64,000 nt of DNA from the NCBI GenBank assembly GCA_010015585.1, contig ML975151.1; one strand, written 5' to 3'. Made by a program: the position numbers and the translations under genes. Origin of the DNA: Eremomyces bilateralis CBS 781.70. Its lineage: Eukaryota. Positions 9,142 through 31,119 of this stretch are shown in pieces. Numbering within the stretch: position 1 is the stretch's first letter; each line of letters begins with the position of its first letter. Under the pieces are notes generated by a model that saw only the letters and a program-made list of their open reading frames with translations, did no database searches and was not told the DNA's origin.

Positions 9142-10513
9142 CTATATATTCCTGAGCCTAACAACCATTCTCTTCCCTCGAGTTTTCCCTTTTTTCAAGA
9201 TCTCCAAGCCTCTCTCGACTTGGCTAAGTCCGCCCTCCAAGACCTCTAAGTCCGGAAGCCTGAGGCTTGAACAGTTGATTAATTCGTTGAGCTTCTGTGC
9301 ATAGATGGCTGCTTCTTCATCCAGGACAAATCTTTTCATCTCCACCGTCTCCACCTGGACATGCTCCGGTATTTCCTCATCGTTCGCCATCATGGCGAGA
9401 GGTGCAAATCGGACTCTCGGGGTCTCACCTTTGCTCTCTTCAGTTGCGCGGCAAGTTTGAAGACACAATCCAGCGGTTTTCGGGCCAACCAAATCAATTA
9501 CCCGGCTGAGTCTGCCACTGGTCACTGCTCGAATTTCCTCCACAATCTCTTCCGCCGTCCGGTCATCGCGTACTACGACGTGGTCTGCTCCGAGTGATGT
9601 AGAGAGAGCTGCAGTACGACCCGAACAGACTGTAATGACTCTTAAGCCAGAGTGGATGGCGATTTGAGTCGCAAATTGACCTGTTACGGTACTTCCACCC
9701 CAAATCAGAAACCACTCCCCCACACCTGGCCTAGACGAAGCGGGAGAAACGCTGTAGTAGCCAGAATCCAGCGAATGTGGTGTTTCCGTCCCCAAAGAAT
9801 GCTCTGACGATTCAGGGCTCTTTGGATTTGGATCCGGATCTGGCATCGGTACATCCATCCATTTCCAGAGAGCCATAGCAGCAGTGAGGGCGCCGACGCC
9901 CAAGCAAGCTGCCTGCTCGAAGCTGAGGTCCGCGGGTATTGGAAGCACAGTGTGTTGAGGGACGATGATGTACTCTTGGAAACATCCGGCACGGACGTCT
10001 CGGTAGTACGTCGAAGTCCACACACGGTCTCCGGGTTTTACATGGTGGACGTTTTTCCCAACCTTGGCGACCGTGCCCGATGATTCTCTGCCAGTAATCT
10101 AACAATGGTTAGTACAAGCGGTTGTGAATGGTGAGGACACCTACCCATGGAAATGATGGCAAGCAGAAGTTGTATTCGACAGACTTCCAATCAATCGGAT
10201 TGAGGCCGACGGCATGATTCCTGATCATGACTTCATTGTCGTCTCGGATCTCCGGGACTGGGTAGTCGTCGCGGAGTGCGTACTCCCCCCTCCGCGCCAC
10301 GGTAAGTGCTTGTTGTACTTGTGGAGGCGATAATGATGTGTTTGCCGCTGGCTTTAAAGAATGTTTTGAAAATGTAGGTGCTTGCTTTTCCGATATCTCA
10401 ATCCCAACGATCGTGGTGGGTGTAGGAAGGTCTGACTTCTTTGCAAGCCTAAAAATTCGTCGTATTCGCGCTCGTAAGCGCCTGAGAGAGCTATGATCAG
10501 GCGTTATAGCCAT
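9142..10513 (-). CDS. Medium-chain (MDR) enoyl-/quinone-reductase-like oxidoreductase, 2 exons
   Basis: AVGLNPIDWK...FPW|ITGRESSGTVAKVG...KPGDRV...LSFEQAACLG...LIWGGSTVTGQFATQIA; intron ~10099-10144 (GTAGGT..CTAAC..TAG). Confidence 0.9.
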
Positions 10514-10945
10514 GCTGGTGAATATTGAACACCTAGAGCCGCTTCGAATAGGATCTGCAACGAAAGAGACGATACCGAGTGATTGACTTCTAAAATTCTG
10601 GTTGGGAAATGGCGATACGCACTTTGTACTCCCAATGGAAAGGATTAAATAAATAACAACGTACTATGTAAAGCAGTTTTCCAACTATTGCAACGTCAAC
10701 GCTCCTTATTCGGCTCAGTCCGTATTACAAAATCTGCTCGACAACGGCAGGATCGGGTGTCTCTTCCTAGGAACTGGTTACTGGTACCCCGTGCGGATGT
10801 GACAGCGAGCGGCTAGAGTAGTCTACTTTTGTCCATTCTGTTTGAAAGCCTCAAGAGCCGACGGCAGAGGACTTAAGCTTGCTGGACTGGGTTAGCGTTC
10901 GCGTCCTTGGAATGATGGGGAGGTTGAAGAGGGCGGTGGCCGGTT

Positions 10946-10975
10946 CGGAACTGCTTCCGACGGATTATGTTCCGA
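10946..10975. promoter_or_regulatory. Two tandem CGG-N8-CCGA sites upstream of the MDR gene
   Basis: CGGaactgcttCCGA (10946-10960) and CGGattatgttCCGA (10961-10975). Confidence 0.6.
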
Positions 10976-11068
10976 CGAGCTGCAGCCACGGCGAATAGAA
11001 TTGGACATTGACAATTTCACAAGTATGACGATATTCTGGACGCGCAAGATTGAAGATAGTAGCAAGAA

Positions 11069-13418
11069 TTAAATTGAATACGCTTCGTGACTCATCTCAA
11101 ATCCGATCAGGTCAAAGCCGCCCTGAATCGTGACCATGTTCTCCATAGCTCCAAACGTGTCGTCAAAGATAGCGTCGTTGAACTCCGGCCGAGTTGCATG
11201 TAGTTGCATCCGTTGTGTTTCGTCCGGAATGACCTGTGTCATCGGAGTGTCCATCATGGGAGCCACCATCATGGCTCCAGAGTGCCCGATTGAACCGTTC
11301 CCACCAAGTTCTGGTACTCGGACGTCCGGGACCGGATTTCCCGCCATGTCCGCAACCATTGCTGTTACAGCGGCCGATCCCTCTTCATTTCCATCCACGG
11401 ACATGAACAGCCCACGATTGAGTTGCTTGATGGCTCGACGAGGCTCGTACTTACTCTCCTTGATTGATTCGAGGACCGACTGCTTGACGGCTTCGTACAT
11501 ATCGCGATATTTCTTGGCTCCCGGCCAGCGCTCGGTGATGATGTATAGGACGATGCTGCAAGCATTCATGTCATTTGATGTGGTGATGCTGAAGACTTCC
11601 GATGGTGAAATCCAAGTACAGTAGACCAAAGTGAGACCTAAACGAATTAGCACATTGAAAATGAAATCTGGAGGGCGAAAACCGACCCGCAAGAAACACA
11701 GAATGCAGCGCCATGAGAGAAAACCCGACCGAGATGCTCTGGTGGAGCTTCTTGTACGTCTGGCAAACTCCTCCGCAAGCTTCCGCACATTTCATGATCA
11801 AACTAAGCGGCAGCTTTGGACCGGAAAGGACCGGATGCAGTAAGAACCGGAGGCACTTGTAATAGTACACCATGTAGTAGCCATACCCGTCTATGACTTT
11901 TGTGTCGGTTGTGGTAGTAGCCTTGTCGGCATTGTGTTCCCGTGCGTCTCTAGGGATCCGGTCTCTCCAATCGTCCAACTCTTTGATGAAGGTCTCGACA
12001 TCCGACTCGGAAGCACCCGAAGGCCGGTCAACACGGTATATGGTTTGTTGAATCTTGGATTCGATGCGACGTAGACAGCAGATGTGGATGAAGCAGCTGA
12101 GCGATGTGGACACAGCAGGCGGGTCGCTCTCGGATTTGGTTGCGACCTGCGCGGCCTCGAAGACTGCCGCGTCCTGGACGGATTCGTCGACATCGAGGGG
12201 TAGTTCAACATCGATATCCTGATCCGAAATGGCAAATGGGCGGCCTAGAATGATGGATATTTGTCGGTCTAGACAATAGCAGGTCCAGAAGATTCTCTTT
12301 CGCATCTCGTCTTCCAGGATCGAAAAGCGCTTGGGAGGACTCCGGCGGTGCATACCGAGGTCGATGCAAGTCCTCATAGCCAATCCGATACAAGTCCACG
12401 CTCCAGGCCCTTGGGGCGCCCTCAGGCTATAGATAGCGAGGAGGATCAAGATCTGGACGGAACGCACGTCGTGGTACTGGAGGACCTCGTCGAGATGCTC
12501 AATCCCTGCATCGTGATGTTTTTCGCAATAGAATGGCCCTGTCTGGCCAGTCGTCTCCAGGAACCGACCTCCGCTAGCATAGATGAGATGAAGTGCACTC
12601 TTCTCATACGGATCTGTGAGCGAGGCCCTACGAGTGTGTAGGATGCGGATGTAGTTGGAGTGAAATATCGGCCATCGGGTAGAAATGTGCTTCAGATATC
12701 CCTTGAGAAGCCGGTTTGCGGTGTCCTGCGGAATGCTTGCCGTTTCAACATAAGTATCTTCAATACTTGCATACGACAGTGATCTTGGGCTTAAATGCTC
12801 CCCGGGCTGAAGGTCAGGGCCGAAGTGTTCTTTGCATTTTACCAACGACCCTACCAGCTTACTCATAGTAATGCTGGATGACGCGCCAATGTATCCGCCA
12901 CTAGCCTGAAGCGACAGATCCCGCAGAATGTCTACCACCCCAGTACCTTCTTCCGACCTTCCCTCCCCGCTCCAGTCGAGCACTTCTCTTTTACCGTGGT
13001 CAGACTGGGGACTCTCGACGTGCGGTCGTTTGGCCGGTCTACGAATCTCAGAGGGTTCGGAAGAATCGGAGTGGTGGGCGGCTCGAAGTTGACGCCAGCG
13101 GGACTGGCCTTCATCAGCGATTCTTTCTCGCATCAAGACGGCCTCAAGTTCAGCGACACGGTTCTTCGCGGCTTTGTAATAGTCATCCTGACTCCTAGAG
13201 AGCGGCCTCGTGGGCTTGATGTATTTGCAAATGGCATCGAAGCTGGCACAATTGGAACAGGAAGGTGTCCGGCCATCACATTTCTGCTTCCGAGTCTTGC
13301 ATCGCTGGCAGGCCACGGCGACCCGGGCACGTCGTGCCGTTCTGGGTCTATCAGCTGTCGGCCCGTCCATTTGCTCGAGCGGGTTCTCGGATATAGCTGT
13401 GGGCGGAGTAGTAACCAT
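11069..13418 (-). CDS. Zn(II)2Cys6 transcription factor with fungal-specific TF domain, UaY/Ppr1-like, 2 exons
   Basis: ACQRCKTRKQKCDGRTPSCSNCASFDAIC; LAMRTCIDLGMHR...RKRIFWTCYCLDRQISIILGRPFAISDQDIDVELP; intron ~11639-11688 gives HSVFLAG|LTLVYCTW. Confidence 0.92.
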
Positions 13419-13919
13419 GATGCTCTGGTTAAAGACGCGCTATCTTTTCACAGAATCGAAAAAGGTAGTAGTAGTCGAGAGAGATCCGGAGGAGATCCCA
13501 GGATATGGGATCCTCTCCGGCCTCGAAGGGAGATAGTCATATGTTGGGTCATAGTCGATTATGCAACGCAACTGGGATAGGAGAAAGATAAGGGAGGGAC
13601 TTGAGCGATAGGAGATAAGTTCATGTATTATAGTGTAGTGTCAAAAACGGCGGAGTGGAGCTGGGAGGTACATTTAGCATGACTCATGAGCACCGAGGGG
13701 AACCTGTGGAGAATATATGTATCATGGGCTCATGGCTCATGAGTGTCGAGGTAGTGTTAAAAATGGGCCTTAAGGCTTGGCGTTTGAAGAGCTTTGAATT
13801 GTCACGTGGTTCGACTTTCAACCGCTCCTCAATTTACGGAACAAACGACACCAGATCAAAATCCCGGATACTATCAGGTATTACATACACAACCGCTATC
13901 CCTAGACATCTATCCTCGA

Positions 13920-15800
13920 CTATAGGGTTCCCTTCTCCAGAAAAGCAGTCGGAATGTCGATATGCTTGCTACGTAAGTACTCCGCAATGAACTTCCCCAG
14001 GATATCATATGTTGCATTGGCAGTCACTCCCCGATCAAGGTGATCATGCAGCAAGAAATGAACCGCCCAGAGATTGGGAAACTCCATTCGATCGATTTTC
14101 TGGCCCTTGTAGTCCTCGCCCATGAGTTCCTTGAATTTCTCCGAGCTCAGCAGGCTTCGCAGCCACGGCCATTCCGACGCGTCGCGAGCGAAGAATCCGA
14201 CATTGCAGTTCGAGCCTTTGTCGCCCGCCCTCGCGTATACAACCCGCCCCAGAGGGGCACGAGTCGTTGGTCCGAACTCTCCTAGGTCCACTGCATTTGT
14301 TGTCTCGTACGACGGTTGCGTCCATGGGTGCTCGATGGTCTCGGCTGCCGGAGGTACAATCACGTCGTCGTGGCCTGGTTTCGAGAAGTGGATGATTTGC
14401 GTCGGTTGTGGAATCAAGGTTGGGAAGTACTCGGTATACTGACAATGATGTTAGCTCGATCTCCGCGCATATTCCCTTTTTGGAACACCTACTGGCTTTG
14501 GCACCGCCGTTCGGAGGTCAGCGTGAAATGTAGCGGCTGGATATGTGTGCATGTTCATATCGAGCGCCGGGCGTATGAAGTTGGCTTCCGACAATGCTTC
14601 TGCTTCCTTTGCCTGAGCGAACAGTCGCATATCCACTGTTGCTGCGTTCTGATTTCGAGGATTCTCTGATGCCGTGCCGTACACTGACACATCCCAGAGA
14701 CTGAACTTGGAGAGTCTGGCTGTGCCAAAGCTGTGGCGCAGCTGCGTTTCTAGTAGCTTGACCTTCTCGTCAATATCTAGCCCGACCATCGCCCAATGGA
14801 CTTCGGCTTGGTACCCTCCAAAGGCCGTAAGCCCCATTTTCGTCGTTGCCGGCGGTGGCCGTCCGGTAATGCCGGAGAGTCGGACTCGGTTTGGTCCCAG
14901 CTGCGTGAGGCTAGCCTGGTCGATGACAGCTGTGACATCGCAGTTGAGGTAATACATTCCCTGGATCTCGTACAGAAGCTGTTCCTTGCAGGTTTCCACG
15001 CTCACCAAGCCACCCGTTCCCTCGGGCTTCGTGATGACGACGCCTCCTTCGCTATCGATTTCTGCAATGGGGTATCCAAAGTTGTTGATTCCATTCCAGT
15101 CTAGGCTTTTCCACCCAGTGAAGTTTCCGCCAGTCACATAGACTGAGCATTCAATCAAGTGGCCGGCAATTAATGACTGCGCGAGTTGGTCATAATTCGA
15201 CCTCGACCATCCATGCCACCACGCGGCAGCTCCAATGATTGGCGAAGCATCTGCCACGCGGCCACAGATGACGATTGACGCACCTTCGCTGAAAGCTCTG
15301 GCAATGGCCATCCCGCCGAGATAGCACTGCCCGAACAGGGGCTCGAACTCCCATTCTGCGAGCGTCTTTCCGGTTGAAACATGTCGGTAGCTGGAAGGAT
15401 CTTGCTTCAAGTCCTCCTTAACTTGGCTCAGAACGGAATCGCCTTCAATCCACGCCACGTTCAAGCCCAGTCCCTTCTCTTCCACCATCTTGATGACCAC
15501 ATTATATAGCTCTTTTGTTGCTACAACTCCAGCGTTGCATGCAAGCTTAAGTCCTTTCTTAGCAATTCCTTCAAGGGCCGGCTCCAAGGCTTCTAAAAAG
15601 CTGTCTTCATAGCCAATCCCGAGTCCGTTTGCCACGTTGTAGGCTCGAGTTGGCATGTTCAGCTCGCTCATCCAGTCCCCGACGAGCACGTCGACCGACT
15701 CCGACATGTTGACCGCATTGGAAAGGGCATCGCGTTTGTCACAAGGTGAGCCAGAAATGTTCATAATACGCACAGGGCGCGTTGGAGGATGGGACACCAT
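13920..15800 (-). CDS. AtuA-like / DUF1446 family protein, 2 exons
   Basis: VRIMNISGSPCD...DVLVGDWMSELNM...GASIVICGRVADASPIIGAAAWWHGW...AGHLIECSVYVTGGNF...EQLLYEIQG..YLNCDV; C-terminal PLGRVVYARAGDKGSNCNVGFF. Confidence 0.88.
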
Positions 15801-16438
15801 GTTGTCAATCTAGCAAAATCACAGTATGTTGGGGGAGGAGATGAAAAGGTGTATGTGAGCACTATTCAATTCTCTGCAAATATCAAATCTCGGTCTTATG
15901 TCTAACAGCAATAGATAGCAGTCTTGCCATATTATTGCCATTCGAACCCCACCGGAGCCGTTTGCGAGTTCGGATGTTTCTGGCAGCCATCCGGCAGGGA
16001 CCATGGACGGCAGCAGAATCCGCTCGCGTCCGCTCATATGTTTCCCAGGTTGGAACCGGCGGGGTTATGCGTAGTTCTGGAATTGACATTGTCGATGCCT
16101 TGAAATCGTTATCATTTCCCGTCGGTACCTAGACTCCGCTACGGACGATTAGACCGAACCCGCTACTATAGAAGACCAATATCTAGAGAAGATCGAGATC
16201 CAACGGAATGGTGAGCTGACCGTCGCTCTTGGAGTGCTCCGTATGTATCCTGCCAGTCGCGGATAACGAATCATGCTAATCGTGCAGGTGTCACAGGTTT
16301 GACTACGTTCTTTAGCATGATCGGAAAATAGAATGTACAGCCAATGGCCGTATTACAGCCCTTGAAACCAGGGTTCCGTTTCGTTAGGTATCTCGGTCCC
16401 GATCTGGACTCTAGATCCAAAACATCCCGGTCTTCCGA

Positions 16439-16453
16439 CGGAAGTGCTCCCGA
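16439..16453. promoter_or_regulatory. CGG-N8-CCGA site in the divergent AtuA/OYE promoter
   Basis: CGGaagtgctcCCGA preceded by TTCCGA, the same TTCCGACGGA junction as at 10955-10964. Confidence 0.55.
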
Positions 16454-16687
16454 CAGGACAAAGCTGCATCACGTGACTAGACTGAGGGTCGGCATGCCGA
16501 TCCTATAGCGAAACAACCTATGACATAGTGTCTATTACGGAATACAGGACCACAAATTAGGTAACATGGTCCGCACGCTAACAAAGGTCGGTATACTTTT
16601 CTCCAAGTCTTTCCGGGCAGATGCGTTGAACACCATCTCAATCCCATGCTCGTCCCTAATTGAGGTGTTTAACTAGCAACGACAGCG

Positions 16688-18102: not shown

Positions 18103-18564
18103 GCCGTACGCCTGAAGGGATGAACAGAATGAGATGGTCCTTGGTTGCGGACTCTAAATGGGCATTTTCGGGTTTTCGATTTTCATTAATATATGGCATC
18201 CTTCGAAGAACAGTCTGGAGGCGTGAAACCCTCCCGTGATCCGGTAAAACCATTCAGTGAATTATGTGCATGATGAAGCCTTTTTTAAAGGCGAGCTCTA
18301 CTCTAAACGTCCAATGCCGGTTTTCCGGGGAGAGGGGTGTGGCTGGGGGGGGGGGTGAACGGCCATGACATTAGAATTGAACTTCTGAAAGCTAGTCGAA
18401 CAACTTGTCCTTCCAATCGATGGATTGCAGGCTCCAGTATTCAGCTATGATTATGATGGAGTGCAAGTGGTGATATTGACTACATGATCCTACAGAAAGA
18501 ATTAATACAGCTCAAATGGCACTGATGCCAGAGGGTTTTCTTGAAAATAGTTCCTTCAATTCCA

Positions 18565-20194: not shown

Positions 20195-20486
20195 TGCGAT
20201 GGTTCGATAAGTTCTTCAAACGACTTTCTGAAGGGCGAATGGCTGCGTGAGGACCTCTTGCTATCAAATGGGAGCGTCAAAGGCTTATAATACGTATGGA
20301 GAAAGCAATTACTGGTCTATCGGCCCGGACAACCGTCTGCGGGTTTGAACTGCAGTAGGAGTCAGGCCAAAGGCCCGACTCGGAAACAGCCGCGAGCATC
20401 ACATTAGCATCTTACGATCTCCGGAGTTTGGAATCGATAACAAACGAAACTTAGGTGGACTGGGAAAGTAGTTTATGAGATGCCGT

Positions 20487-20521
20487 CGGCACATATTCCG
20501 ATGGGTCGGAGAGGTTCCCGA
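20487..20521. promoter_or_regulatory. Two TCGG-N8-CCGA sites 20 bp apart in the divergent monooxygenase/MFS promoter
   Basis: tCGGcacatattCCGA (20487-20501) and tCGGagaggttcCCGA (20507-20521). Confidence 0.6.
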
Positions 20522-20570: not shown

Positions 20571-20809
20571 CTCCCTATTGGTCGTCCCCAAAGCGCTAAC
20601 CTGTTTAGGAACAGTGACCCATCGGGGGCTGCTGCGGGGTTTTTTGTACAGTTTACTACGGAACATGGGTAATAGGGTAATAGTTCGTTAACTTCTGAGT
20701 TCGTACTGTGTACAATCATACTCTGTACTCCGTACACTTGGTACTCTTGGCCGTTGGATAATTTCGTAAATTCTGTGATTTTTTCAAGACTTCAACGCTG
20801 CTGTCAACA

Positions 20810-22641
20810 ATGGCAGAATACCGAGAAAGACCACCCCAGGAATCTACGATACAGCAACCACAAGAACTTGTCGACACTCAAGACTATTCCAACCAATATT
20901 CATTCTCAAGACTGGTTATAATTCTTGCGGCGCTGGCATTTACTCTCTTTGTTTCTTTCATAGATCAAACCAGTGTTTCGACGGCACTGCCAGCAATTGC
21001 CAAATCGCTCGATGCGTACGAGTCGATATCATGGGTTGGCACCTCATTTCTGGTTGCAAATACGTCGTTTCAACTGATAAATGGCCGGTTAAGTGACATA
21101 TTTGGTCGGAAAAACTGTCTCATGTTAGTGTCTTGAAATAGAATAGCAAAAACATTTGCTGATTGATCAGGACTTGTATGGCTCTGCTTGCAATCGGAGA
21201 CTTGCTGTGTGGATTTGCAAAGACTCCAGCGCAGCTATATGTGTTTAGAGGAATTGCTGGTGTTGGTGCTGGTGGAATTAATAGGTAGGCGCCTCTTAAC
21301 CTTTGTATGGAATCATTGCTGATTAACGATTAGTTTGGTTATGATCATGTTCACAGACATGACGACCCTAGAGCAGCGAGGAAAGTACCAGGGACTTCTT
21401 GAGACCAACATAGCTTTAGGAAATGGAGTTGGACCCCTAATAGGGGGCGCCTTCTCACAGTCATCCGCAACATGGCGATGGGCATTTTGGTTCGTCGTGC
21501 CAGTCACAGTGATGGCAGCAGTGCCAACCTACCTCACTTCACCCAAAAGCAAGTTGGTGGGAAATATGTCTGAGAAGCTGAGAATGATAGATTATGGAGG
21601 CATGGTGCTCAGTCTCTCTTGTGTCATTTTCCTGCTTGTAAGTCAACCACTCCTAAATCATTCCAGTGCCAGAATAACCAAATAACAATTGACCAGATTC
21701 CCATTTCATCCGGCGGAACCACGTGGAGCTGGTCATCACCTCTCATCATATCTTTTCTTGTGATCGGAGCCTGTCTTGTAGTATTATTCGTCGTCTTCGA
21801 ATGGAAGTATGCCAAGTATCCAGTTATGCCTCTACGAGTATTCGACAGGCGTTCGGCAAAGATCCTCTTCATGCACAATCTCTTAACCGGCATAGTTTAT
21901 TACTCGGACCTTTATTACCTGCCGTTATATTTCCAAGTCGTCCTTGGCCATTCACCCTTGGAATCTGGCCTGCTTATCCTGCCACTTATCCTCGGATTCT
22001 CAGCATCTTCCACAACGGCTGGATTTCTCCTTTCCCGCCTGGGACGCTGCAATCCTGTTATCTGGGCTGGCTACGTGATGTGGACTGCAGGCGCAGGAAC
22101 CCACATCGCCTTCGGATCGTCGACTAGCATCGGAGTCACCATTGGATGTCTTTTGGTCGAGGGATTCGGTATCGGATTTTCGTTCCAGCCAGTTATGATC
22201 GCACTACTGGCTAATACCAGGAAAGAAGACCGAGCCGTTGTTACTGGAATGCGTAACTTTATCAGGACTGTCGGTGGGGCAATCGGACTGGCCATCTGCG
22301 CAGCAATTATCAACAACGTGCTGCAGGCTAACCTACCACCGTCCATGCCAAGTCAGAGCGGGATGGAAATGATCGGCAAGCTGGACCAATTGACTCCGGG
22401 GGAGCAGAGCGCACTCAGGGAGGCGTACATGAAGGGTTTGGACATTGTATTCCGTCTCGCTTGCCCGTTGATAGGATTCTGTCTTCTCACAAGCGCGGCG
22501 TTGACTGATGTTCCGTTAGCAACGGCACACGAACCGCAGGAGCAAAGCGGGCCTGCAATCGACGAGAAAGACTCGGGGGCTGCAAGTTCCTCACCTGCAA
22601 AAACTGAGATCACAATTGATGTGGACTTGCAAAGGAAATGA
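20810..22641 (+). CDS. MFS transporter (DHA2-like drug/H+ antiporter type), multi-exon
   Basis: FVSFIDQTSVSTALPAIA...WVGTSFLVANTSFQLINGRLSDIFGRK...LEQRGKYQG...GPLIGGAF...WRWAFW...YYLPLYFQVV...RNFIRTVGGAIGLAI. Confidence 0.9.
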
Positions 22642-22806
22642 CGATAGATATCAATGATATTTAACTAATAGTTAAACATTGTAAAAAGCATCCTTGAAAG
22701 CAAGCTATTTTGAAACCCTGCACTAGACTATGGTGGTTCTATGTGCAGTTTAATATCTACGGTACGGCACCATACAACATACCAGTGTCTCCAGTGTCTC
22801 CAATGT

Positions 22807-23682
22807 CTATTGGTATTTAGTCAGAAATGGAGACAAAGCTTTCGCAATGCCTTCTACATCTCTATCCGGCTCAAAATTGCCGCCAGTAATCTCAATCGCT
22901 TGAACTCCTTCTCTCAAACCATGGACATGTCCAAAGTACCTCCATAGAACATCGTCTCTTGCACACATCAGCAAGATTGGACAGGAGACCTGTTTATATA
23001 AATCCTCGCTTTTCTGAGCCCAGACTGCCCCGTAAATCAGCATCCGTCCTTTCCATGCCCGAATATGATCCACTGCTTCCCTCTGCCACAACGTGATGTC
23101 TTCACCAACCCCCATATTGCCGAGATACTCCCAGGTCTTCAACAAATGTGATCCATCCCGGGCCGGTTCGTTGAATGGCTTGAAGAATATTTCCTTCATC
23201 GCTGCTCTTTCTTCCACCGACATCACTGTTGGCCCGACAAGGCAAATAGTCGCCACGAACTCAGGATACCGGGCAGCAAATTCGACCGCGAGAACTGCTC
23301 CGGAATGGTGTCCGATGATATGGCATGGCGTCGTGCACCCATTGCCCGCGAGTCCGAGAGCTTCAAATGCTTGCATGAAGGTGGCGGAATACCATACCGT
23401 CCCTTGTTCTTCGATCTCCGCTATCGCGGCTTTCGACGGGTCGAAACTCCCTCCGAATCCGGGCATGTCCGGAGCATAGCATGCGTAGCCTTGCGATGCA
23501 TAGTATTGCATGAGTAACTCATAGCTTGCAGATGATGAAGCAGACTTGTGTAAGAAGATAATTGGTTCCTTTTGTATGGTGGTTTGGGTGGAAGGAAAGA
23601 TATATCGGTAGTGAATCTGGCCGTGGGAGGTGTCGACATACCCCTTTTTCAAGACTGGGGAAAGTAATTTCTGGGCAGGCAT
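22807..23682 (-). CDS. Alpha/beta-hydrolase-fold protein with atypical catalytic motifs, intronless
   Basis: KGYVDTSHGQIHYR...PIIFLHKSASSS...YAPDMPGFGGS...HIIGHHSGAVLAVEFAARYPE.VATICLVG...CPILLMCARDD; ATG at 23682. Confidence 0.85.
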   Translation of the reverse strand: MPAQKLLSPVLKKGYVDTSHGQIHYRYIFPSTQTTIQKEPIIFLHKSASSSASYELLMQYYASQGYACYAPDMPGFGGSFDPSKAAIAEIEEQGTVWYSATFMQAFEALGLAGNGCTTPCHIIGHHSGAVLAVEFAARYPEFVATICLVGPTVMSVEERAAMKEIFFKPFNEPARDGSHLLKTWEYLGNMGVGEDITLWQREAVDHIRAWKGRMLIYGAVWAQKSEDLYKQVSCPILLMCARDDVLWRYFGHVHGLREGVQAIEITGGNFEPDRDVEGIAKALSPFLTKYQ

Positions 23683-23955
23683 GGTTGCTTGGCTTATCGA
23701 AAAGGGGTTGGTTGAATTTGATGGATGGAGGGAACACCGAAGCCCGTGGGAATCAAAGGTCACATAAATAACAAATAAAGATAAATCTAATGTCGATAAC
23801 TATGGATACCGGCATTGCGTTCCGAAACTGGCACATTGCTTCCGATGATAGATATCCAGTTCCGACGCACTCTGCCTTCCGCCAAATCTAATTCAGATTA
23901 CACTAGATCAACGAGGATACTCAGGAACTATTCTACTCTCGCATCCTTTACACAA

Positions 23956-25933
23956 TTACCCAGCCATACCCTTCAGCGACGGCGTGATGCTTGCCTTTTC
24001 CACATCATTCGGTGTATCTGTACCGCTGGGGGAAAGGCCTTCAATGACGTGACCCTCATTTCCGAATGGAACCCTTTCGTATGGCTTTCCAGGCGGCGGG
24101 CTGATGAGACAGATAATGAAGTATATCAATCCAGCGCCAATGAAGCCGATAAACCAGGCTGTCTGGAATAGTTTGAGCCATGCAGGCGCTAACTTTGCAC
24201 CACCAGTGGCTACAACGAATCCCGCTTTTATGGTAGTTAGTAGCACGAACTGCAACTAGTTTGAATGTGAAACTTACGGAAACTGGGGAAGATCCCAATG
24301 GTCCAGGCGGTGAATGCTCTCCAGTTCAGCCCGAAAGTGTACCAGTAAATTGAACTCTTGTCACCGATGTACAGATGCGGAACGGTCCAGTTTCGCCGTC
24401 GGACGAACCAACTGTCGCAAGCGTTAGTGATTCGTGGTTCATTTTGGCACTGGAATCCTACAAGTCGACCGCATTGATCGCGGCAAGAGGCGACACAAAC
24501 ATGCCGAAAGAGTTCAGCACGGTAATGAAATTGCCAGGTGCGTTGACGAATCGCCATGGATTGATCAGATATCCGATGAGGCACATGATAAGACTACCAC
24601 GAGTAACGTCAACCCATCTCGGAGCGAGGGATGCAAGATCCATGCCGGCGGCGACTGAATTCTGGACTAGATTAACCTGGAATAATCAGTACTGAAATTT
24701 AGGAGATCGCGCTGAGCTAGTCGCTTACCGAAATCTGACTCAAGAAGAAGCCTAGTCCGGCAAAAAAGCAGCCGGCGCGGGTGGCAGCATTGTAATTATC
24801 GGAGAGAAGGAATTCTAGTAGTGTGATGGGTTGCCAGATCTCCTTGCCGTACATTGACTTGACGGCGCTCGTAGCGAATGTTCCAAGAGTTGCGGTGACC
24901 GTAATCGCAATGGGAACAGTGAACAGTTGGTTCAGCACAGGAGTTCTCTTGGTCTTTGCATATCGAGTCCAGTCGGCTTGTCTACGGCGTGTCAGCGGGC
25001 TATACAATAGTTTACATATGGTTTGACAAACCTGATTGCGCTACCTGTCCAGGAACCAGCAACTGAACTGACTGCTTGCAACATCTTGAACTTTCGGGTA
25101 CTGTCATCGACCTGGATCGATGCAGCAAGAGCAGAAGCGCCTCCATTGGAGGCAACTGCCCATATAAAGAGCCCGACAATGGTGGCAAGAACGGCGCCAA
25201 AAGCAAACCAGAGTAACCTATGCATTTTGGATGGATGAATGAGCATCAAAGGAGTGAAGATCATGATGTAAATGATGAACCCGATGAGCTGATTCGTGGT
25301 GATGGCTGCTTCGAGAGGAAGAGTGTTCCTCATATTTTGGAACGAAGGGAATATGGCTGAAAGGACAACTTTGACTGCAAGGCCGCCCCAGTATGCTTGA
25401 ATGCCGAAGCTACATAGACAATTAGGAGGCTAGATAGTGCCATAGAGAGACAAGCTTACTAGATGAAGTTGACGAAGCATTTAATCATGACGACAAAGAA
25501 GGATCCATACATTCCAAACGCAACCCGGCTCATCATTGGAAAGCCAATATGATATTGAACCTGCCAACTTTAGTTAGAGAGGCTTGAGGCGGATGGTGAA
25601 AGGTTGACTTACCCCTGGCTCTGCGCAAATAAAGGAAATAAGGCCTGCAAGAACTGATCCAACAAAGACCATGCCAATGGTCTCTCCAGCTGAGAGTCCA
25701 TTCGCGAGGTTACTCGATCCCAGTGTCCAGGCAGAGACGTTCACTGTTGCTGCAATCCAGAATCCGAAGTAGCCGCGCTGTGTGTAGTTGCGCTCCTCTG
25801 GGGGCGAGGGTGCACAATCGTGGTTCGTCCATCTGTTGAAAGTTGCTTCATCATCCCCTTCCTGCTTGACCTCCAAGGAGGTGAAAGTCCGGGGAATATG
25901 GACACGAGCCCTCAACCCGTTTAGGGCATTCAT
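23956..25933 (-). CDS. NCS1-family nucleobase/allantoin-type permease (Fur-like), multi-exon
   Basis: RWTNHDCAPSPPEERNY...FWIAATVNVSAWTLGS...ADWTRYAK...IWQPITLL...RAGCFFAG...GMDLASLAPRWVDVTRG...INPWR...GLNWRAFTAW. Confidence 0.9.
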
Positions 25934-26411
25934 GGTGACAACTTGTAAACGGAGGGGAATTCCGTTAAGTGCCAAATGAACAGGGAGCTTCAAGAAATAT
26001 TTATATCTAGCATCCCGCGTTTGTTGCAAAGAGCACTGGCGCAAGTTCTTGCTTGCATCCTGAGTACTGATTACCGATACCATGAGGCTGGAGACCAGAT
26101 AGATCGGAAGTGCTTCCAGCGCAAATGGTGAATGCCATACTGAATCGTAATTGCGCAGTAAACGAGCCCCTAAGAGAGATGCCTAGACTTTCCTAGAGGT
26201 TGTTGCTATCTGTTGTGGAGCAACCAAAGATACGAGCGCAGAGATACCCCAGGTTACTATAGTTCCCGCGAACACGTTCGGAACCCCGGAACTTCATTTT
26301 GAGCTTATCAGCAGATCTACAAGACAGCGACAAAATTTGGTTTTCTTAGTGGACTGGTTAGTGTCACCGATGATAGATTGGTTCAAGGAGATTGGAACAT
26401 CTGCGACCAAC

Positions 26412-26426
26412 CGGAATCGTCCCCGA
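26412..26426. promoter_or_regulatory. CGG-N8-CCGA site in the divergent NCS1/flavin reductase promoter (near-site at 26105-26118)
   Basis: CGGaatcgtccCCGA; near-match CGGaagtgcttCCA at 26105. Confidence 0.5.
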
Positions 26427-26754
26427 AGTCTATCGAACTTTCCGATGCGGTACCTGTAGCCTGTATCAGAGTGGCGGATGCACGCAACGAGGACTGTAGG
26501 AGTTTTCGACTTCGTCGGTTGGGACGACATACCACCAATGAGTTGCTAACTTATGGCAGGTTCGCATTGGAAAAATTCTTGCAAAAAGCCTCGTAGGGTT
26601 CCAAGATCTAGATGTATCGACCTTGCCGCAGTATCGACGGATAAACGTCGAAGTTTGACACCTGTTGCAAAATAGCAGCTGCCTTCTAAGGATTTGTTAA
26701 TATTCCTCTCCCCCCTACGGGTACTTTCCGGTAGTTACTTTGGTTCTCTAAATC

Positions 26755-27663
26755 ATGGCTTTTTCCCAAATCACGAACCTCCACGTCGAGGCATTCGACA
26801 AGGAAGCGTTGGTCCAACGGAACCCACATGCCGAGTTTCCAGCCGTCGAGGCCTCTCGTCCTGACTACGATCCGTCCAAATTCTGGGAGTACAGCAAAAC
26901 CCCTAAACCGAACTGGAAGCCGGGAAGTGGTTCTATATGCGATGCATGGAAGTCGCATACTCTCATTGCCATCGATCCCGATTCGCCAAACCGGACACAG
27001 AATCAGAACTACAAGTTGATGATTTCATCCACGGTTCCACGGCCCATTGCTCTCGTCAGCACAGTATCACGAGAGGGTGTACATAACCTGGCCCCGTTTT
27101 CCTACTTCAACACCGTCAGTGTGGATCCACCGCTTTACTCCGTCAGCTTCGTGGGGACAGAAGCCAATGACAGCTTGACCAACGTTCTCGACTCTGGGGA
27201 GTGCTGCATCTCTATCGTCAGCGACTGGTTTCTCGAAGCAGCAAACATGACGTCGGTGAACACCCCTCCACACGTGAGCGAATGGCCACTATCCGGACTG
27301 CATCCAGTCCATTCGCACATGGTCAAGCCACCTCATGTGGGAGAATCGGCGTTCAGCATCGAATGCCATGTGCACAGCACTATCCCAATCTACTCCCAGA
27401 GAGAAGTCCACGACGACGGACGTAAAGTGAGGACAGCTACCATGGTATTGTTTCGGGCAGTTATGTACCATGTGCGAGACGACGCCATCAACGATCGAAT
27501 GGAAACAGTAGATATTGGGGTGCTAAGGCCGGTATGGAGAGGAGGAGGTATTACATATGGCAGTTGTTTTGGCGGTTGGGAGACAGAAAGACCGAAGGCC
27601 TTTAGACATCTAGTGGAGCAGGAGGATGTCAAAGCTGTGCTTAACCAATTGCAAGTTTCATAG
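26755..27663 (+). CDS. Flavin reductase-like FMN-binding split-barrel protein (DIM6/NtaB family)
   Basis: NYKLMISSTVPRPIALVSTVS..GVHNLAPFSYFN.VSVDPP...DSLTNV...SEWPLSGL.P..S.MVKPPHVGESAFSIEC...LRPVWRGGGITY. Confidence 0.88.
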   Translation: MAFSQITNLHVEAFDKEALVQRNPHAEFPAVEASRPDYDPSKFWEYSKTPKPNWKPGSGSICDAWKSHTLIAIDPDSPNRTQNQNYKLMISSTVPRPIALVSTVSREGVHNLAPFSYFNTVSVDPPLYSVSFVGTEANDSLTNVLDSGECCISIVSDWFLEAANMTSVNTPPHVSEWPLSGLHPVHSHMVKPPHVGESAFSIECHVHSTIPIYSQREVHDDGRKVRTATMVLFRAVMYHVRDDAINDRMETVDIGVLRPVWRGGGITYGSCFGGWETERPKAFRHLVEQEDVKAVLNQLQVS

Positions 27664-27848
27664 ACGTCGATAGAACCAAGATCTCTCTGGATGATCTCTC
27701 TGGGTGTTCGAGTCCATGTGGCAGACTCCACGCCTTTGGAATCGTGTTACTCCGGGAGTATGTGTGGAATCAAAGTGCTCAGTGACGCAAGTTCTATAAT
27801 CTACATTCATTTCTTCGCTACATAAACATAAAATAACAGAGCCTTTAT

Positions 27849-28871
27849 TTAAGCTAACTGGCCCTTCTTGTACGGGAACTTCTCTCGGAAATTTTCCGCA
27901 ATCTGTGTCCTCGTTGCAACCCATACTCCCTCCTTTGTAGCAATGTACTCGACAAACTTCTGCAGGGCTGCAAACCGGGCAGGCTTCCCAATGCATCGAC
28001 AGTGCAACCCGACCGTCATCATCTTGGGCATTCCTTCCACACCCTCCTGATACAGCACGTCAAAAGCGCCCTTGACATGATCGTAGAAATCCATCGGCGC
28101 GCTGAATCCCGTGGCAACGTTGAACTTGTAGTCGTTGCAGTCGTATGAGTACGGAACCATCAGCATTCCTTGAGGGTTTGGCTCGTCCTTCTCGGCAGGT
28201 ACGTCCACCCAGTACGGAATGTCGTCGGCATATGAGTCGGATTGCCAAAGGAGAGGGAGGCCCATTTCCTTGTAAACATCCCATATAAGAGCATGAGATC
28301 GCGGTGAAAGACGTCCGTAGTACCACCCTTTGGGGTAGACACCGCTGACGTCTTTGATGGCTTTGATTCCCTTGCGAATGTATTCCTTCTCCTCTTCCGG
28401 GCCAACCGTGTGATAATCGATCCAGCGGTAGGCGTGCGATGCAATGTCGTGACCATTCTCCACCGAGGACTTGGCGACGGCGGGATTGTCTTCGAGGGCT
28501 TTGCCAACGGCATACAGAGTATATTTCATATTGTGCTTGTTGAACAAGCGAATGAGGCGCCAGACGCCGGCCCGGGCCCCGTAGTCATACTCGGATTCGA
28601 TATTGACTGCTCGCTCCTGGACATGCGGAGTTCCGCCCGGAGCTTCCCACAGGTGGGTCTCAGAATGAACGTCGCCGTTCAAGACAGTATGTTCTGCTCC
28701 TTCCTCATAGTTGATGACGAACGAGACGGCGATCTTCGCATTATTGGGCCACTGGGGATGGTGGGACTTCTCGCCGTATCCGATGAGGTCGCGAGGGAAG
28801 TCATAGTGGTCGTTCCATTCATATGGTGCAGCCTTCAAGGCATCCGATCCAAGATTGTATGGCGTAGACAT
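27849..28871 (-). CDS. Polysaccharide-deacetylase-fold cyclic amide hydrolase, PuuE allantoinase / HxnM type
   Basis: PRDLIGYG...PQWPNNAKIAVSFVINYEEGAE...ESEYDYGARAGVWR...HDIASHAYRW...GWYYGRLS...DSYADDIPYW...VPYSYDCND.KF...MMTVGLHCR.IGKPAR. Confidence 0.9.
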   Translation of the reverse strand: MSTPYNLGSDALKAAPYEWNDHYDFPRDLIGYGEKSHHPQWPNNAKIAVSFVINYEEGAEHTVLNGDVHSETHLWEAPGGTPHVQERAVNIESEYDYGARAGVWRLIRLFNKHNMKYTLYAVGKALEDNPAVAKSSVENGHDIASHAYRWIDYHTVGPEEEKEYIRKGIKAIKDVSGVYPKGWYYGRLSPRSHALIWDVYKEMGLPLLWQSDSYADDIPYWVDVPAEKDEPNPQGMLMVPYSYDCNDYKFNVATGFSAPMDFYDHVKGAFDVLYQEGVEGMPKMMTVGLHCRCIGKPARFAALQKFVEYIATKEGVWVATRTQIAENFREKFPYKKGQLA

Positions 28872-29392
28872 ATTGCTTGAGGAAGAGAGAGGGTAGGAAG
28901 AAGAATAGGATGTCGAAGGTCACGACTGTCTCGCCGCGAACAATGGTCCTACTTCTACTCACCTGTAATCCTAGATAAGCCACAATCAGCTCTTCTATTC
29001 TCGCTTGAACCTCTATCGTCACCTGAATTAGCAATCGCCCCGCCCCTCTAAATGGGAGGAGCAACTATTCCGACGGGTGATCGGATTCGGCACATCCGAT
29101 AGATAGTCGGGGCACCAGAGATGATACCGAACGGCCCGGCATCGGCTTGGATCATAGTGCTCTTCGAGATGCGATAAGAGCAATTGAACAAAACCGTGAG
29201 CTGCATATTGACTTCTATAGCCTCCTACCTTTTCCAGTGTTCTGAGCTCCAAAGAATTTGACAGCAGCAAGCCGGGAAGTTGACAGTTCGCTCAAATCAC
29301 GTATCTCCATAGCCCGCCTACAATTTTAGATCCTGTTACCCCTGGAGACGATACCTTACCCTTTTTGGACGCCAGTCAGTGACATCACAGTC

Positions 29393-31119
29393 ATGTCCGT
29401 CTTATTCACGACTATCTCAGAGTAGGCTCTGCACCACCAAACTTGTATGTTGGTATCCAATCTCACAATATTTTAAGGAAGAACCCGGTCACCGTCAATG
29501 ACGTCTGCAGCGCTCTTGCTAAAGTTGGCGGCGGCGTCAAACCTCGGGCTGAGGATGAAGCCGATTTCGTAAAGCTATTGGCGGCGGTACGTGGTGGCCT
29601 ATCGAGTTGCCGCCTGAAAATGCTAATAGTGACCGCATCGTAGTGCCACGATTGTGCCGCTTCCATTGACGCTCTGCCTGACTACGATGTTCCAACGGAC
29701 GGCAAACGGTTCCCGCGCAAAAATGTCCATCGCGTTCAACCGTCCGAGCAAGTGCTTGGCGCCGCGTGGGCGCACACCTTTTCCATCAAAGATGATTTCA
29801 TTCAAGGGCCGTTGAGCGGCAAGACCGTGTGTCTGAAAGACTGCATCTGCGTAGCAGGCGTACCACAGATCCTGGGAACGGAGATCATCGAGCCCTGGGA
29901 GCCAACCAGCGACGCAACAGTCGTGACGAGGACGCTAGAGGCTGGTGGCGAGATTGTAGGCACGGCCAACTGCGAGAACTGGTGTCAGAGCACCAGCTCC
30001 TTTTCCAGCGCGCATGGGACGGTAGAGAACCCACATGCAGCTGGGTACTCGGCGGGAGGAAGCACCTCTGGTGCTTCGGCACTGGTTGGAGCAGGCCTGG
30101 TCGACATCGCGATTGGCGCAGATCAAGGAGGAAGCATTCGAGTTCCCGCTGCACTTTGCGGCTGCGTGGGTCTGAAGCCGACGTTTGGACTTGTGCCCTA
30201 TACCGGCATCGCGAGCAACGACGCCATCAATGACCATGCTGGACCTCTTGCTAGCAACACGATGGACACGGCCTTGTGTCTCGACGCCATAAGCGGATAC
30301 GATGGTATTGACGACCGCTGCTTCGGAGCGCCCAAGCCCAGTAGCACAACCTTTGCCGCCGACTTGGCTGCCCCATCAGCAGCCGATCTCCGTGGCTTCA
30401 GGATTGGGATCCTTAAAGAAGCTTTTGAGCAAGCCACTGTTGAGCCGCGAATGAAGACCGCCGTGTTATCCGCGGCAAACCGATTCAAGGAGCTCGGTGC
30501 CACTGTCGCAGAGGTCTCCGTCCCAGATCATAATCTCGGAACTGCGATATGGACCATACAGCAACGGATCGCCGGGAGTCTATCGCTCCTCGGGCATACA
30601 ACAGGCCGACGCGGGCAAGGTTTGCCCGCGCTCCATGCTGCACGACTACCCTGGACGCAGGAGAAGTTCGACAAGTGCTTCCCAACCACGCAAAACACCA
30701 TGCTGAACGGCCTGTATTTGATGGAGCGTTTCCCATCCATCTACGCAAAGACGTTGAACCTCATCCGCCGCCTCACAGATTCATACGACCGGGTGTTGAA
30801 GGACTACGACGTGTTAATTCTCCCGACGACGCCGTTCGTCGCTCCGCGCCATGGCACACTCACTACCCCGATCGCAACCATTGAACCAACGGTAGGATTG
30901 ACCTGCAACACGGCCATGTTCGACGCCACGGGACATCCTGCGCTGACACTCCCTGTTGGCTGGCTGAGCGCAAAGGACAATAAGGACATATATCTGCCTG
31001 TTGGGATGCAAGTTATAGGCGGTATGTGGGAAGATGGCAAGGTATTGCGGGCTGCGTATGTCTGGGAGCAATCTTTTGACTGGAAAGCCATGAAGCCCGT
31101 GGTTAACGGCATGCACTGA
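29393..31119 (+). CDS. Amidase-signature family amidase, 3 exons
   Basis: Spliced MSVLFTTISE|..KNPVT..LLAA|..; GKTVCLKD (Lys), AGGSTSG (cis-Ser), GADQGGSIRVPAALCGCVGLKPT (Ser nucleophile). Confidence 0.92.

Follow-up and report, generated by a model that had tools for sequence, protein, structure and literature searches.

A gene cluster of Eremomyces bilateralis with a resident regulator, a conserved core and lineage-specific additions, probably for the breakdown of an imported nitrogen-containing ring compound

The subject of this analysis is a group of eleven genes (g1 to g11, positions 9142-31119; Table 1) in a stretch of 64,000 nucleotides of contig ML975151.1 from Eremomyces bilateralis CBS 781.70 (assembly GCA_010015585.1), the whole of which is called the window below. 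The cluster probably serves to degrade a nitrogen-containing ring compound taken up from outside. Its eleven genes are not one equally conserved unit and consist of a conserved core with lineage-specific additions. The core is made of an NCS1 importer, a two-component FMNH2 monooxygenase comprising a luciferase-like monooxygenase (LLM), an AtuA-family protein resembling the citramalate lyase subunit CmlA, a non-canonical alpha/beta-fold protein and a Zn2Cys6 activator, to which a reductase of the medium-chain dehydrogenase/reductase (MDR) type probably also belongs. The best reading, to which a probability of about 0.55 is given, is that of a regulator-controlled catabolic cluster, built from this core plus lineage additions, for an imported N-heterocycle or cyclic amide. 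As part of that whole, and at the same odds, the additions in this lineage would be the PuuE-like/amidase pair at one edge and, inserted inside the core, an ene-reductase of the old yellow enzyme (OYE) type and a major facilitator superfamily (MFS) transporter of the DHA2 type.

An earlier note on this DNA, made from the sequence alone, had described a single self-contained pathway of eleven genes; only the LLM, reductase, NCS1, alpha/beta-fold, AtuA and Zn2Cys6 genes, with the MDR gene once, were found to recur together. The catabolic role that it proposed for an NCS1-imported nitrogen compound is upheld as the best reading, and no description of this gene combination in fungi was found in the literature searched. 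The AtuA protein had been assigned no role in that note and is presented here as a conserved core enzyme with, by its predicted structure, the CmlA fold. New in the present analysis are the modelling of the AtuA protein onto CmlA, the substitution of His for Ser in the alpha/beta-fold protein, and the finding that likeness to the Rut and hxn systems holds at family level only. Gene content was determined by Pfam scans of the 25 open reading frame (ORF) pieces in 9142-31119 (28 in total, three of them upstream) and by NCBIfam scans of 14 pieces.

Conserved linkage of the core genes

The linkage of the cluster genes was surveyed in 56 loci from a metagenome scan, which were searched with the eleven gene models by tblastn; 19 of these loci carry an LLM at least 60% identical to g5 and 37 an LLM less than 56% identical. 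Other cluster genes were found beside the LLM in 11 of the 19 related loci, representing seven distinct fungal arrangements (L001=L002, L003=L008, L005=L006=L007, L010, L012, L019 and L022), while the remaining eight are short contigs, two of which (L011 and L015) have a one-sided flank of ~2.4-2.6 kb without a match. Across the seven arrangements, the genes that recur beside the LLM are those of the AtuA protein, the flavin reductase, the NCS1 permease, the alpha/beta-fold protein and the Zn2Cys6 factor. The expectation that homologues would be linked elsewhere was thus borne out for the core and failed, within the flanks that these loci offer, for the OYE, MFS, PuuE-like and amidase genes.

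Gene order and orientation vary among the seven arrangements, the order being alpha/beta-fold, NCS1, reductase, AtuA, LLM and Zn2Cys6 factor in L005-7, AtuA, Zn2Cys6 factor, alpha/beta-fold, NCS1, reductase, MDR and LLM in L010, and NCS1, alpha/beta-fold, Zn2Cys6 factor, AtuA and LLM in L022. Such shuffling of order and orientation points to selection for linkage and not to synteny by descent. The grouping is not due to chance, and the core is a genuine conserved cluster. Certain adjacencies are frequent: AtuA adjoins the LLM in L005-7, L012, L019 and L022, NCS1 adjoins the alpha/beta-fold gene in all nine related loci that have both, and the reductase is divergent from NCS1 in L005-7 and L010 as it is in the window. 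Counterparts of g2, 41-45% identical, are present in L005-7, L010 and L022, with a fragment in L019, and a counterpart of the MDR gene g1 (45% identical) stands beside the LLM in L010 only. The flanking genes differ among loci, and the clusters end at housekeeping or unrelated genes, namely DUF1349 and CNOT1 in L010, cutinase and eIF5A in L022, and the tail of a polyketide synthase (PKS) outside the NCS1 gene in L008.

The core set was absent from all 37 loci with a distant LLM, where single weak matches were obtained in each of L031, L036 and L044. In one of these loci, L036 (3742-12772), an NCS1 gene with 34% identity to g8 is surrounded by three LLM paralogues with 45-47% identity to g5, a layout which implies that the LLM-NCS1 pairing recurs in a paralogous cluster.

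A search with the LLM exon gave 3682 matches, and the best 120 of these include LLM orthologues 67-90% identical from Dothideomycetes, Eurotiomycetes, Leotiomycetes and Sordariomycetes, a distribution that is wide but patchy. In a quickly built tree of 32 chosen rows, the window protein groups (SH-aLRT 99) with those of Trichodelitschia, Rhinocladiella, Cladophialophora, Halenospora and Tricladium, a clade that mixes Dothideomycetes (Trichodelitschia), Eurotiomycetes (Rhinocladiella, Cladophialophora) and Leotiomycetes (Halenospora, Tricladium), and Dothideomycetes appear in at least three places of the tree. This topology hints at either transfer of the cluster between classes or old paralogy.

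A candidate binding site for the resident regulator

The resident Zn2Cys6 regulator announced by the earlier note was recovered as g2 by Pfam, and it has the counterparts in related loci mentioned above. CCG-W-CGG cores were noticed on inspection of the seven cluster promoters. CCGWCGG occurs at 13 sites in the 64 kb, six of them within ~4.3 kb of cluster promoters, and the longer form CCGWCGGAA gives four matches in the window against 0.98 expected, a number reached by 1 of 100 shuffles. All four matches fall in three cluster promoters, those of g1, g3/g4 and g10/g11 (Table 1).

The orthologous loci played no part in motif discovery, and 12 of the 14 motif matches in LLM-orthologue loci fall in promoters of LLM, AtuA, Zn2Cys6 factor or alcohol dehydrogenase genes. 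In L010, L019 and L022, the AtuA-LLM or MDR-LLM promoter has two to three copies of the motif at a spacing of ~24 bp, and the motif is also found upstream of the Zn2Cys6 factor (L010, L022), the LLM (L001, L011, L038) and AtuA (L012), with the same palindromic double form as in the window preceding the LLM of L038. Altogether, it lies upstream of the LLM in six of the nine distinct loci for which upstream sequence is available. From this distribution, CCGWCGGAA is likely the site of the resident Zn2Cys6 factor.

The AtuA protein and citramalate lyase

Membership of g3 in the AtuA family is given by Pfam, with 514 bits for AtuA (cut-off 22.8) and 59.4 bits for the AtuA_ferredoxin domain (cut-off 27). 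A representative search of the family returned 3168 relatives, and an alignment of 49 sequences was used for an AF2 model (pLDDT 94.4); g3 has all 12 of the columns that are invariant among the 49 members. The model matched 9evf_A ('citramalate lyase - ADP - pyruvate') with a Foldseek E of 2.1e-16 and a TM of 0.69, and with a VIA Z of 27.4 over 391 aligned residues (rmsd 3.2), the next entry having a Z of 9.9. In addition, the AtuA profile matches 9erq/9evf ('AtuA family | citramalate lyase subunit A', CmlA per the depositors) with an E of 1.3e-05. Because a single-sequence search of the PDB with the AtuA domain gave no match, the link between AtuA and CmlA is visible only through profile and fold. 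Going by the model, g3 is a conserved core enzyme with the CmlA fold and a candidate CoA-independent C-C lyase; no CoA-handling enzyme was found in the window cluster by Pfam scan.

Cml (cmlAB; Raoultella planticola) is described as splitting citramalate directly into pyruvate and acetate and is cloned as two subunits (bioRxiv 10.64898/2026.01.16.699985), whereas the window protein is one chain in which the ferredoxin-like domain is fused. The likeness to CmlAB thus consists of AtuA membership by Pfam and profile and of a common fold over the aligned residues. The contexts differ as well: CmlA belongs to a methylaspartate/glutamate-fermentation cluster, in which a DUF1446 gene lies downstream of the methylaspartate ammonia-lyase gene (PMC4682846), while g3 stands beside a flavin monooxygenase and an NCS1 permease. 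No function for AtuA/DUF1446 was found in the literature searched by family name.

Full-length bacterial homologues, in which AtuA is likewise followed by the ferredoxin-like domain, are 32-40% identical to g3. The Pseudomonas-type atu/liu and other bacterial AtuA loci share this domain arrangement and differ in the partners: in those 12 of 31 bacterial loci for which the neighbours were scanned, these are acyl-CoA carboxylase, acyl-CoA dehydrogenase, AMP-ligase, enoyl-CoA hydratase, CoA-transferase and thiolase-like genes. No homologue of the LLM, Flavin_Reduct, NCS1, Zn2Cys6 or alpha/beta-fold genes was detected by tblastn in any of the 31; distant amidases are present in L062 and L072, and an OYE of the dienoyl-CoA-reductase type in L082 and L086. 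An origin of the cluster from a bacterial operon was rejected on present data, the core set being found in 0 of 31 bacterial AtuA loci and 0 of 37 distant-LLM loci. A second bacterial context for the AtuA family was observed in L060 and L067 (~11700-13900; two Polyangiaceae genomes), where a cupin and a formyl-transferase-like gene follow AtuA in place of acyl-CoA enzymes.

The monooxygenase, its candidate reductase, the permease and the alpha/beta-fold protein

The two exon pieces of g5 together cover the whole TIGR03860 model, with 227.8 bits (positions 1-192) and 210.8 bits (186-422); they were scored separately, so that each alone is below the cut-off of 279.7. By these profile matches, g5 belongs to the NtaA/DmoA family TIGR03860 and not to RutA. 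Its PDB relatives are DmoA (6ak1, the best), LadA, YtnJ/MoxC, riboflavin lyase, HcbA1, DszA, NtaA and EmoA. Oxygenative cleavage of C-N, C-S and C-Cl bonds is described for group C FMN monooxygenases (RutA, DszA, HcbA1; PMC7662398). The candidate partner of g5 is g9, which has 3bpk ('nitrilotriacetate monooxygenase component B', 1.3e-29) as its best PDB match and whose type of reductase is linked to the LLM in L005-7 and L010. For the permease g8, a match to TIGR00800 ncs1 was obtained along with weak matches to allantoin-permease models.

The alpha/beta-fold protein g7 has a GHHSG nucleophile elbow and HKSASSS in place of the usual HG loop. H125, H126 and S127 are invariant in the six orthologues aligned, and alignments of hidden Markov models to 3bdi, 4f0j and 6l7m place H126 at the Ser position of GxSxG. 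The list of invariant columns includes no His past residue 206 of 291, the region where the triad His is expected. The combination of His for Ser, an altered loop and the lack of a late conserved His indicates that g7 is not a canonical serine hydrolase.

The PuuE-like and amidase genes

Against the PuuE model TIGR03212, g10 scored 358.4 bits (model positions 2-297) for a cut-off of 424.6, and its PDB matches 3s6o, 1z7a and 3cl6 (PuuE) have E values of 1e-89 to 2e-92 (3cl6 1.1e-89), compared with just 5e-13 for 3qbu. As judged from these scores, g10 is a close relative of PuuE allantoinase, yet it falls short of the allantoinase equivalog cut-off. The best PDB match of g11 is the Rhodococcus amidase 3a1k (5e-84), and it scored 438.8 bits against NF005565, under the cut-off of 545. 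Its amidase-signature motifs KD, GGS(T)SG and GGSIRVPA, read by eye in the translation, are taken by us to be the Lys, cis-Ser, Ser triad. In Aspergillus nidulans, AN9327 (P0241) is a PuuE-like protein ~64% identical to g10 which, judging by the published description of HxnM, is not HxnM.

Adjacency of the pair was judged from accessions or locus tags that follow directly on one another, as seen in lists of homologues and in exact look-ups of clusters. The PuuE-like and amidase genes are consecutive in eight species besides that of the window, namely Rhinocladiella similis (000958/000959), Cladophialophora carrionii (OCT44044/OCT44045), Helicocarpus griseus (02015/02016), Emmonsiellopsis sp. 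(002628/002629), Diplodia seriata (008539/008540), Neofusicoccum parvum, N. ribis and Fonsecaea erecta (11305/11306). By accession spacing, a PuuE-like gene is near the LLM in four species besides that of the window. R. similis and C. carrionii have the distance of five genes that is also found in the window; it is four genes in Mytilinidion resinicola, from a different order of Dothideomycetes (PuuE-like gene only), while in Trichodelitschia bisporula the PuuE-like gene and the LLM share a contig and are 13 genes apart.

Comparison with known systems

The systems of the NtaA/NtaB type (TIGR03860: NtaA, DmoA, DszA, LadA, riboflavin lyase) resemble the window in having the LLM family and an NtaB-like reductase in one cluster; compared with the bacterial NtaA/NtaB, the present system is eukaryotic, intron-bearing and linked to NCS1, AtuA and a Zn2Cys6 factor. 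The Rut system (E. coli RutA-G) likewise unites, under common regulation, a monooxygenase of the LLM superfamily, a Flavin_Reduct reductase, an alpha/beta-fold protein and a permease of the nucleobase type. The permease of the window cluster is NCS1, unlike that of Rut, RutG being NCS2. Identification of g5 as RutA was rejected (36 and 25.7 bits against the TIGR03612 cut-off of 498.3), as was that of g7 as RutD (18.6 bits against the TIGR03611 cut-off of 238.5, with His at the nucleophile position), and no member of the RutB (isochorismatase-like), RutC (RidA) or RutE (nitroreductase) families was found in the 25 ORF pieces. Of the Rut/Nta-like front end that had been proposed for the cluster, the Nta half therefore stands by TIGR03860 and 3bpk, and the Rut half is reduced to a superfamily likeness.

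In the trigonelline (tgn) and pyridine (pyr) pathways of bacteria, the ring is opened directly by a two-component flavin oxygenase, and a dehydrogenase and a hydrolase act next. This scheme would suit the LLM, the reductase, the MDR enzyme and the alpha/beta-fold protein and provides the closest functional analogies of which we are aware; to our knowledge, an AtuA-type enzyme is part of neither pathway.

The hxn regulon of A. nidulans (HxnT, HxnM, HxnN) shares with the window an OYE and, as a pair, a cyclic-amide hydrolase of the NodB fold and an enzyme of the amidase-signature type. Its chemical logic of reduction, hydrolytic ring opening and deamidation (PMC9304392) is a fair analogy to the window set, although the pieces scanned here contain no HxnS-type Mo-hydroxylase or HxnX/HxnV FAD monooxygenases. 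The nearest relatives reported by Bokor et al. (PMC9304392) are HpPgdA 3qbu and the cyclic imidase of P. putida for HxnM, and FAAH1 for HxnN. Judged by that published description of HxnM, g10 would be on the PuuE branch rather than on the HpPgdA/cyclic-imidase branch, and g11, nearest to 3a1k, differs from HxnN in the same manner. Moreover, the OYE, PuuE-like and amidase genes, which are the hxn-like parts, form the non-conserved part of the window cluster. The hxn-like back end of the earlier note survives as a family-level analogy only. On sequence grounds, the cluster is neither a Rut system nor an hxn regulon, and both likenesses are at family or superfamily level only.

Proposed pathway and competing explanations

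In the scheme below, the catalytic steps, their order and the substrate class are all inferred. The NCS1 permease would import a small N-heterocycle or cyclic amide, the reductase would feed FMNH2 to the LLM, and the LLM would perform the committing step, an oxygenative cleavage that either opens the ring or breaks a C-N bond. The MDR and OYE enzymes, as ene-reductases, could saturate a C=C bond, after which the PuuE-like enzyme would open the remaining cyclic amide or imide and the amidase would free ammonia. The resulting hydroxy-carboxylate would be cleaved at a C-C bond by the AtuA/CmlA-like enzyme into a 2-oxo acid and a carboxylate, by analogy with the conversion of citramalate to pyruvate and acetate, and the Zn2Cys6 factor would turn the genes on via CCGWCGGAA(G) boxes.

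Several observations weigh against this reading. The nearest solved relatives of g5 act on dimethyl sulfide, alkanes and sulfur compounds and not on heterocycles. The identity of g3 to CmlA is 13-14%, which speaks to fold and family and not to reaction, and the company of acyl-CoA enzymes in bacteria makes a CoA-ester substrate possible for the fungal AtuA as well. With its altered elbow, g7 may be no hydrolase at all. The promoter motif was found post hoc; it is missing from the NCS1/reductase, g7 and Zn2Cys6-factor promoters of the window and absent from the intergenic DNA of L003/L008, L005-7 and L018. Finally, none of the OYE, MFS, PuuE-like and amidase genes was found in the 19 related loci within the available flanks (10 kb in L005-7, L010 and L022), six of the species with the pair (Helicocarpus, Emmonsiellopsis, Diplodia, N. 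parvum, N. ribis and Fonsecaea) are outside the best 120 of 3682 LLM matches, and the pair may, from this distribution, serve a different substrate.

These last points lead to the alternative that survives best, an accidental neighbourhood in which the core is one unit, the PuuE-like and amidase genes are a separate two-step unit for another substrate, and the OYE and MFS genes are unrelated insertions. The adjacency of the pair in species outside the best 120 matches makes it a module in its own right, and Halenospora varia has its LLM gene and its PuuE-like gene on separate contigs. The absence of OYE, MFS, PuuE-like and amidase genes from the 19 related loci agrees with such an account, as do the direct contacts between genes that are separated in the window: AtuA directly follows the reductase in L005-7, the LLM abuts the alpha/beta-fold gene in L001, where the window has the MFS gene, and AtuA and LLM share a divergent promoter in L005, L019 and L022, where the window has the OYE gene. 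However, absence from the best 120 of 3682 matches is weak evidence, and the pair lies four to five genes from the LLM in the window's species, R. similis, C. carrionii and M. resinicola (PuuE-like gene only), thus in two classes, while T. bisporula has it at a distance of 13 genes on one contig with the LLM. The OYE and MFS genes are inside the core and have divergent promoters in common with AtuA and LLM. Furthermore, the CCGWCGGAA box is common to the PuuE-like/amidase and core promoters, with all matches of the 64 kb in cluster promoters, and its occurrence upstream of g10/g11 is the chief reason to regard the pair as integrated into the cluster in this species. An accidental neighbourhood is accordingly regarded as a possible but doubtful explanation.

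It is quite unlikely that the genes alter or destroy a xenobiotic or defence compound, or tailor a metabolite made elsewhere, with export by the DHA2 MFS transporter and with nutrient yield not being the purpose. The MFS protein is of the DHA2/TRI12-like efflux type, OYE and amidase genes are common in fungal xenobiotic-resistance clusters (PMC4726666), and a PKS tail adjoins the NCS1 gene in L008. Nevertheless, MFS and OYE are non-conserved parts, the Pfam scan of the window cluster gave no core biosynthetic enzyme, and the core has an importer together with a C-C lyase family whose one assigned member feeds central metabolism (bioRxiv 10.64898/2026.01.16.699985).

The least probable alternative, though barely less likely than the preceding one, is organosulfur scavenging, in which, when sulfur is limiting, an LLM and reductase like DmoA, SsuD, DszA or SfnG would attack a sulfonate, sulfone or sulfide and free sulfite or a thiol, and the other genes would process the carbon skeleton: the dimethyl-sulfide monooxygenase 6ak1 as best solved relative, the matches to YtnJ/MoxC and DszA, the weak matches to alkanesulfonate and dimethylsulfone monooxygenase models and the automatic naming of orthologues as 'DszA family' or 'dimethyl-sulfide monooxygenase' are in its favour, but the SsuD and SfnG models gave 27-43 bits for cut-offs of 383-518, the scanned ORFs contain no sulfatase, taurine dioxygenase or sulfite-handling partner, and the conserved partners are a permease of the NCS1 nucleobase/hydantoin type and the AtuA lyase, to which this lineage adds two C-N hydrolases.

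The reading as a catabolic cluster for an N-heterocycle or cyclic amide can be drawn further, tentatively, into an undescribed eukaryotic pathway type in which an NtaA-family LLM would open or dealkylate the NCS1-imported heterocycle, a CoA-independent CmlA-like lyase would cut the skeleton to central metabolites and the His-for-Ser alpha/beta-fold protein would carry out a non-hydrolase step, the unit moving between fungal classes and being extended in some lineages by a portable PuuE-like/amidase module for nitrogen release. If true, this would be the first role assigned to the AtuA family in fungi. Fungal catabolic clusters for N-heterocycles are few and each has brought new chemistry, the hxn regulon being an example. 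The starting points offered here are a conserved core of some six genes that spans four classes (Dothideomycetes, Eurotiomycetes, Leotiomycetes and Sordariomycetes), a candidate regulator with a candidate binding site, and three enzymes for function assignment, namely the NtaA-type monooxygenase, the fungal AtuA/CmlA-like lyase and the His-for-Ser alpha/beta-fold protein. Identification of the substrate would give functions to the widespread and probably misleading annotations 'DszA-like', 'AtuA' and 'chitin deacetylase 1', and would test wider C-C cleavage roles for the newly recognised citramalate-lyase fold.

Gene models and transcription

Gene models were obtained with a splice-site script and checked against annotated proteins, an Atlas copy and spliced contigs. 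The g5 model equals the annotated LLM (both 524 aa, same start), the g7 model is identical letter for letter to the Atlas copy (291 aa), and the annotated amidase of 537 aa is 100% identical to g11 over exon 2; the accessions of the annotated LLM and amidase are six apart, in agreement with the gene order.

A single public run, X1, matched the stretch (0.72 of sampled words; 19 of 20 pieces at least 99% alike) and was examined over 11200-31190, g1 being outside. The record itself does not state the molecule, and X1 was read as RNA because its contigs are without introns; they show splicing and not transcript levels. Twelve predicted introns in g2, g3, g4, g5, g6, g8 and g11 are missing from these contigs, with canonical ends on the correct strand, and spliced contigs span all 30 bins of 11200-31190. 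Transcription and splicing of g2-g11 in at least one sample follow from this. The joints are 11634/11684 in g2, 14438/14493 in g3, 19504/19560 in g5 and 29585/29643 in g11; both introns of g4 were confirmed, as were three in g6 (21123/21171, 21281/21331, 21637/21697) and two in g8 (25409/25460, 25558/25611). For g9, a contig is colinear over 26560-28367, and the joint 26495/26560 represents an intron of the 5' untranslated region (UTR).

Two further + strand GT..AG joints (15850/15915, 16240/16297) are located between g3 and g4, and one X1 contig links the first exon of AtuA to the OYE gene. These joints suggest either that the OYE gene has a long 5'UTR, spliced twice, which overlaps the divergent AtuA transcript at its start, or that a small gene on the + strand has escaped annotation. 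Within the minus-strand AtuA gene, a skip of 482 bases with + strand GT..AG ends was seen at 13972-14455 (depth 25.7, side 30); antisense transcription and an artefact of assembly are both conceivable sources.

Gene content and surroundings

The order of the eleven genes and their four head-to-head pairs (AtuA/OYE, LLM/MFS, NCS1/flavin reductase and PuuE-like/amidase), as given in the earlier note, were reproduced by the Pfam and NCBIfam scans, positions 9142 and 31119 being the places where g1 and g11 have their stop codons. No domain of a PKS, non-ribosomal peptide synthetase, terpene synthase, Mo-hydroxylase or group A FAD monooxygenase was found in the ORF pieces scanned in 9142-31119, in agreement with what had been claimed. 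The best NCBIfam matches of g1 are the PIG3, crotonyl-CoA reductase and acrylyl-CoA reductase models, all far under cut-off, and the PDB matches of g4 are those of a generic OYE.

Table 1. Genes of the cluster and promoter motif sites, in window coordinates.
Feature	Position	Strand	Remarks
g1, MDR-type oxidoreductase (zinc-ADH superfamily, quinone/enoyl-reductase-like)	9142..10513	-	Pfam ADH_N, ADH_zinc_N; two-exon model, start uncertain
CCGWCGGAA box, g1 promoter	10955..10963		second CCGWCGG core at 10858-10864
g2, Zn2Cys6 transcription factor, 766 aa in model	11069..13418	-	Pfam Zn_clus 4e-09, Fungal_trans 2.7e-35; intron 11638-11686
g3, AtuA-family protein, 608 aa	13920..15800	-	AtuA + C-terminal ferredoxin-like domain; intron 14439-14492
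Palindromic double CCGWCGGAA box TTCCGACGGAA, between g3 and g4	16433..16443		further CCGWCGG core at 16119-16125
g4, OYE-type ene-reductase, 431 aa	16688..18102	+	Pfam Oxidored_FMN on three exon pieces; introns 16934-16995, 17635-17691
g5, LLM of NtaA/DmoA family, FMNH2-dependent (predicted), 524 aa	18565..20194	-	intron 19506-19560
CCGTCGG core without GAA flank, g5/g6 divergent promoter	20483..20489
g6, DHA2-type MFS transporter, 558 aa in model	20810..22641	+	Pfam MFS_1 (TRI12 weak); TIGR00711 EmrB-type 105 bits
g7, alpha/beta-fold protein, 291 aa	22807..23682	-	Pfam Abhydrolase_6/1, Hydrolase_4
g8, NCS1 permease, Fur/Dal4/Mhp1 type, 556 aa, 7 exons in model	23956..25933	-	Pfam Transp_cyt_pur on four exon pieces
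g9, NtaB-like flavin reductase, 302 aa, single coding exon	26755..27663	+	Pfam Flavin_Reduct 1.7e-22; 5'UTR intron ~26496-26559
g10, PuuE-branch NodB-fold protein, 340 aa, single exon	27849..28871	-	Pfam Polysacc_deac_1; start read from translation
CCGWCGGAA box, g10/g11 divergent promoter	29068..29076
g11, amidase-signature enzyme, 537 aa	29449..31119	+	Pfam Amidase 276 bits; intron 29587-29643

The window is fungal in character, with GT..AG introns of ~50 nt and Zn2Cys6 and HET genes, and no anomaly of GC or composition was noted across the cluster. To the left of the cluster, the only recognisable item is a weak rhodopsin-domain fragment. To the right are a HET gene, a C2H2 protein and a heme oxygenase, then Brix and UPF1 further along. 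The HET-domain (heterokaryon incompatibility) gene, of ~890 codons (32313-34991, + strand), adjoins the end of the amidase gene. A second small metabolic group, composed of a FAD_binding_4 oxidase, a decarboxylase dependent on pyridoxal phosphate and a gene resembling 2-oxoglutarate dioxygenases, occupies 39884-46290 and stops just short of the housekeeping genes Brix and UPF1.

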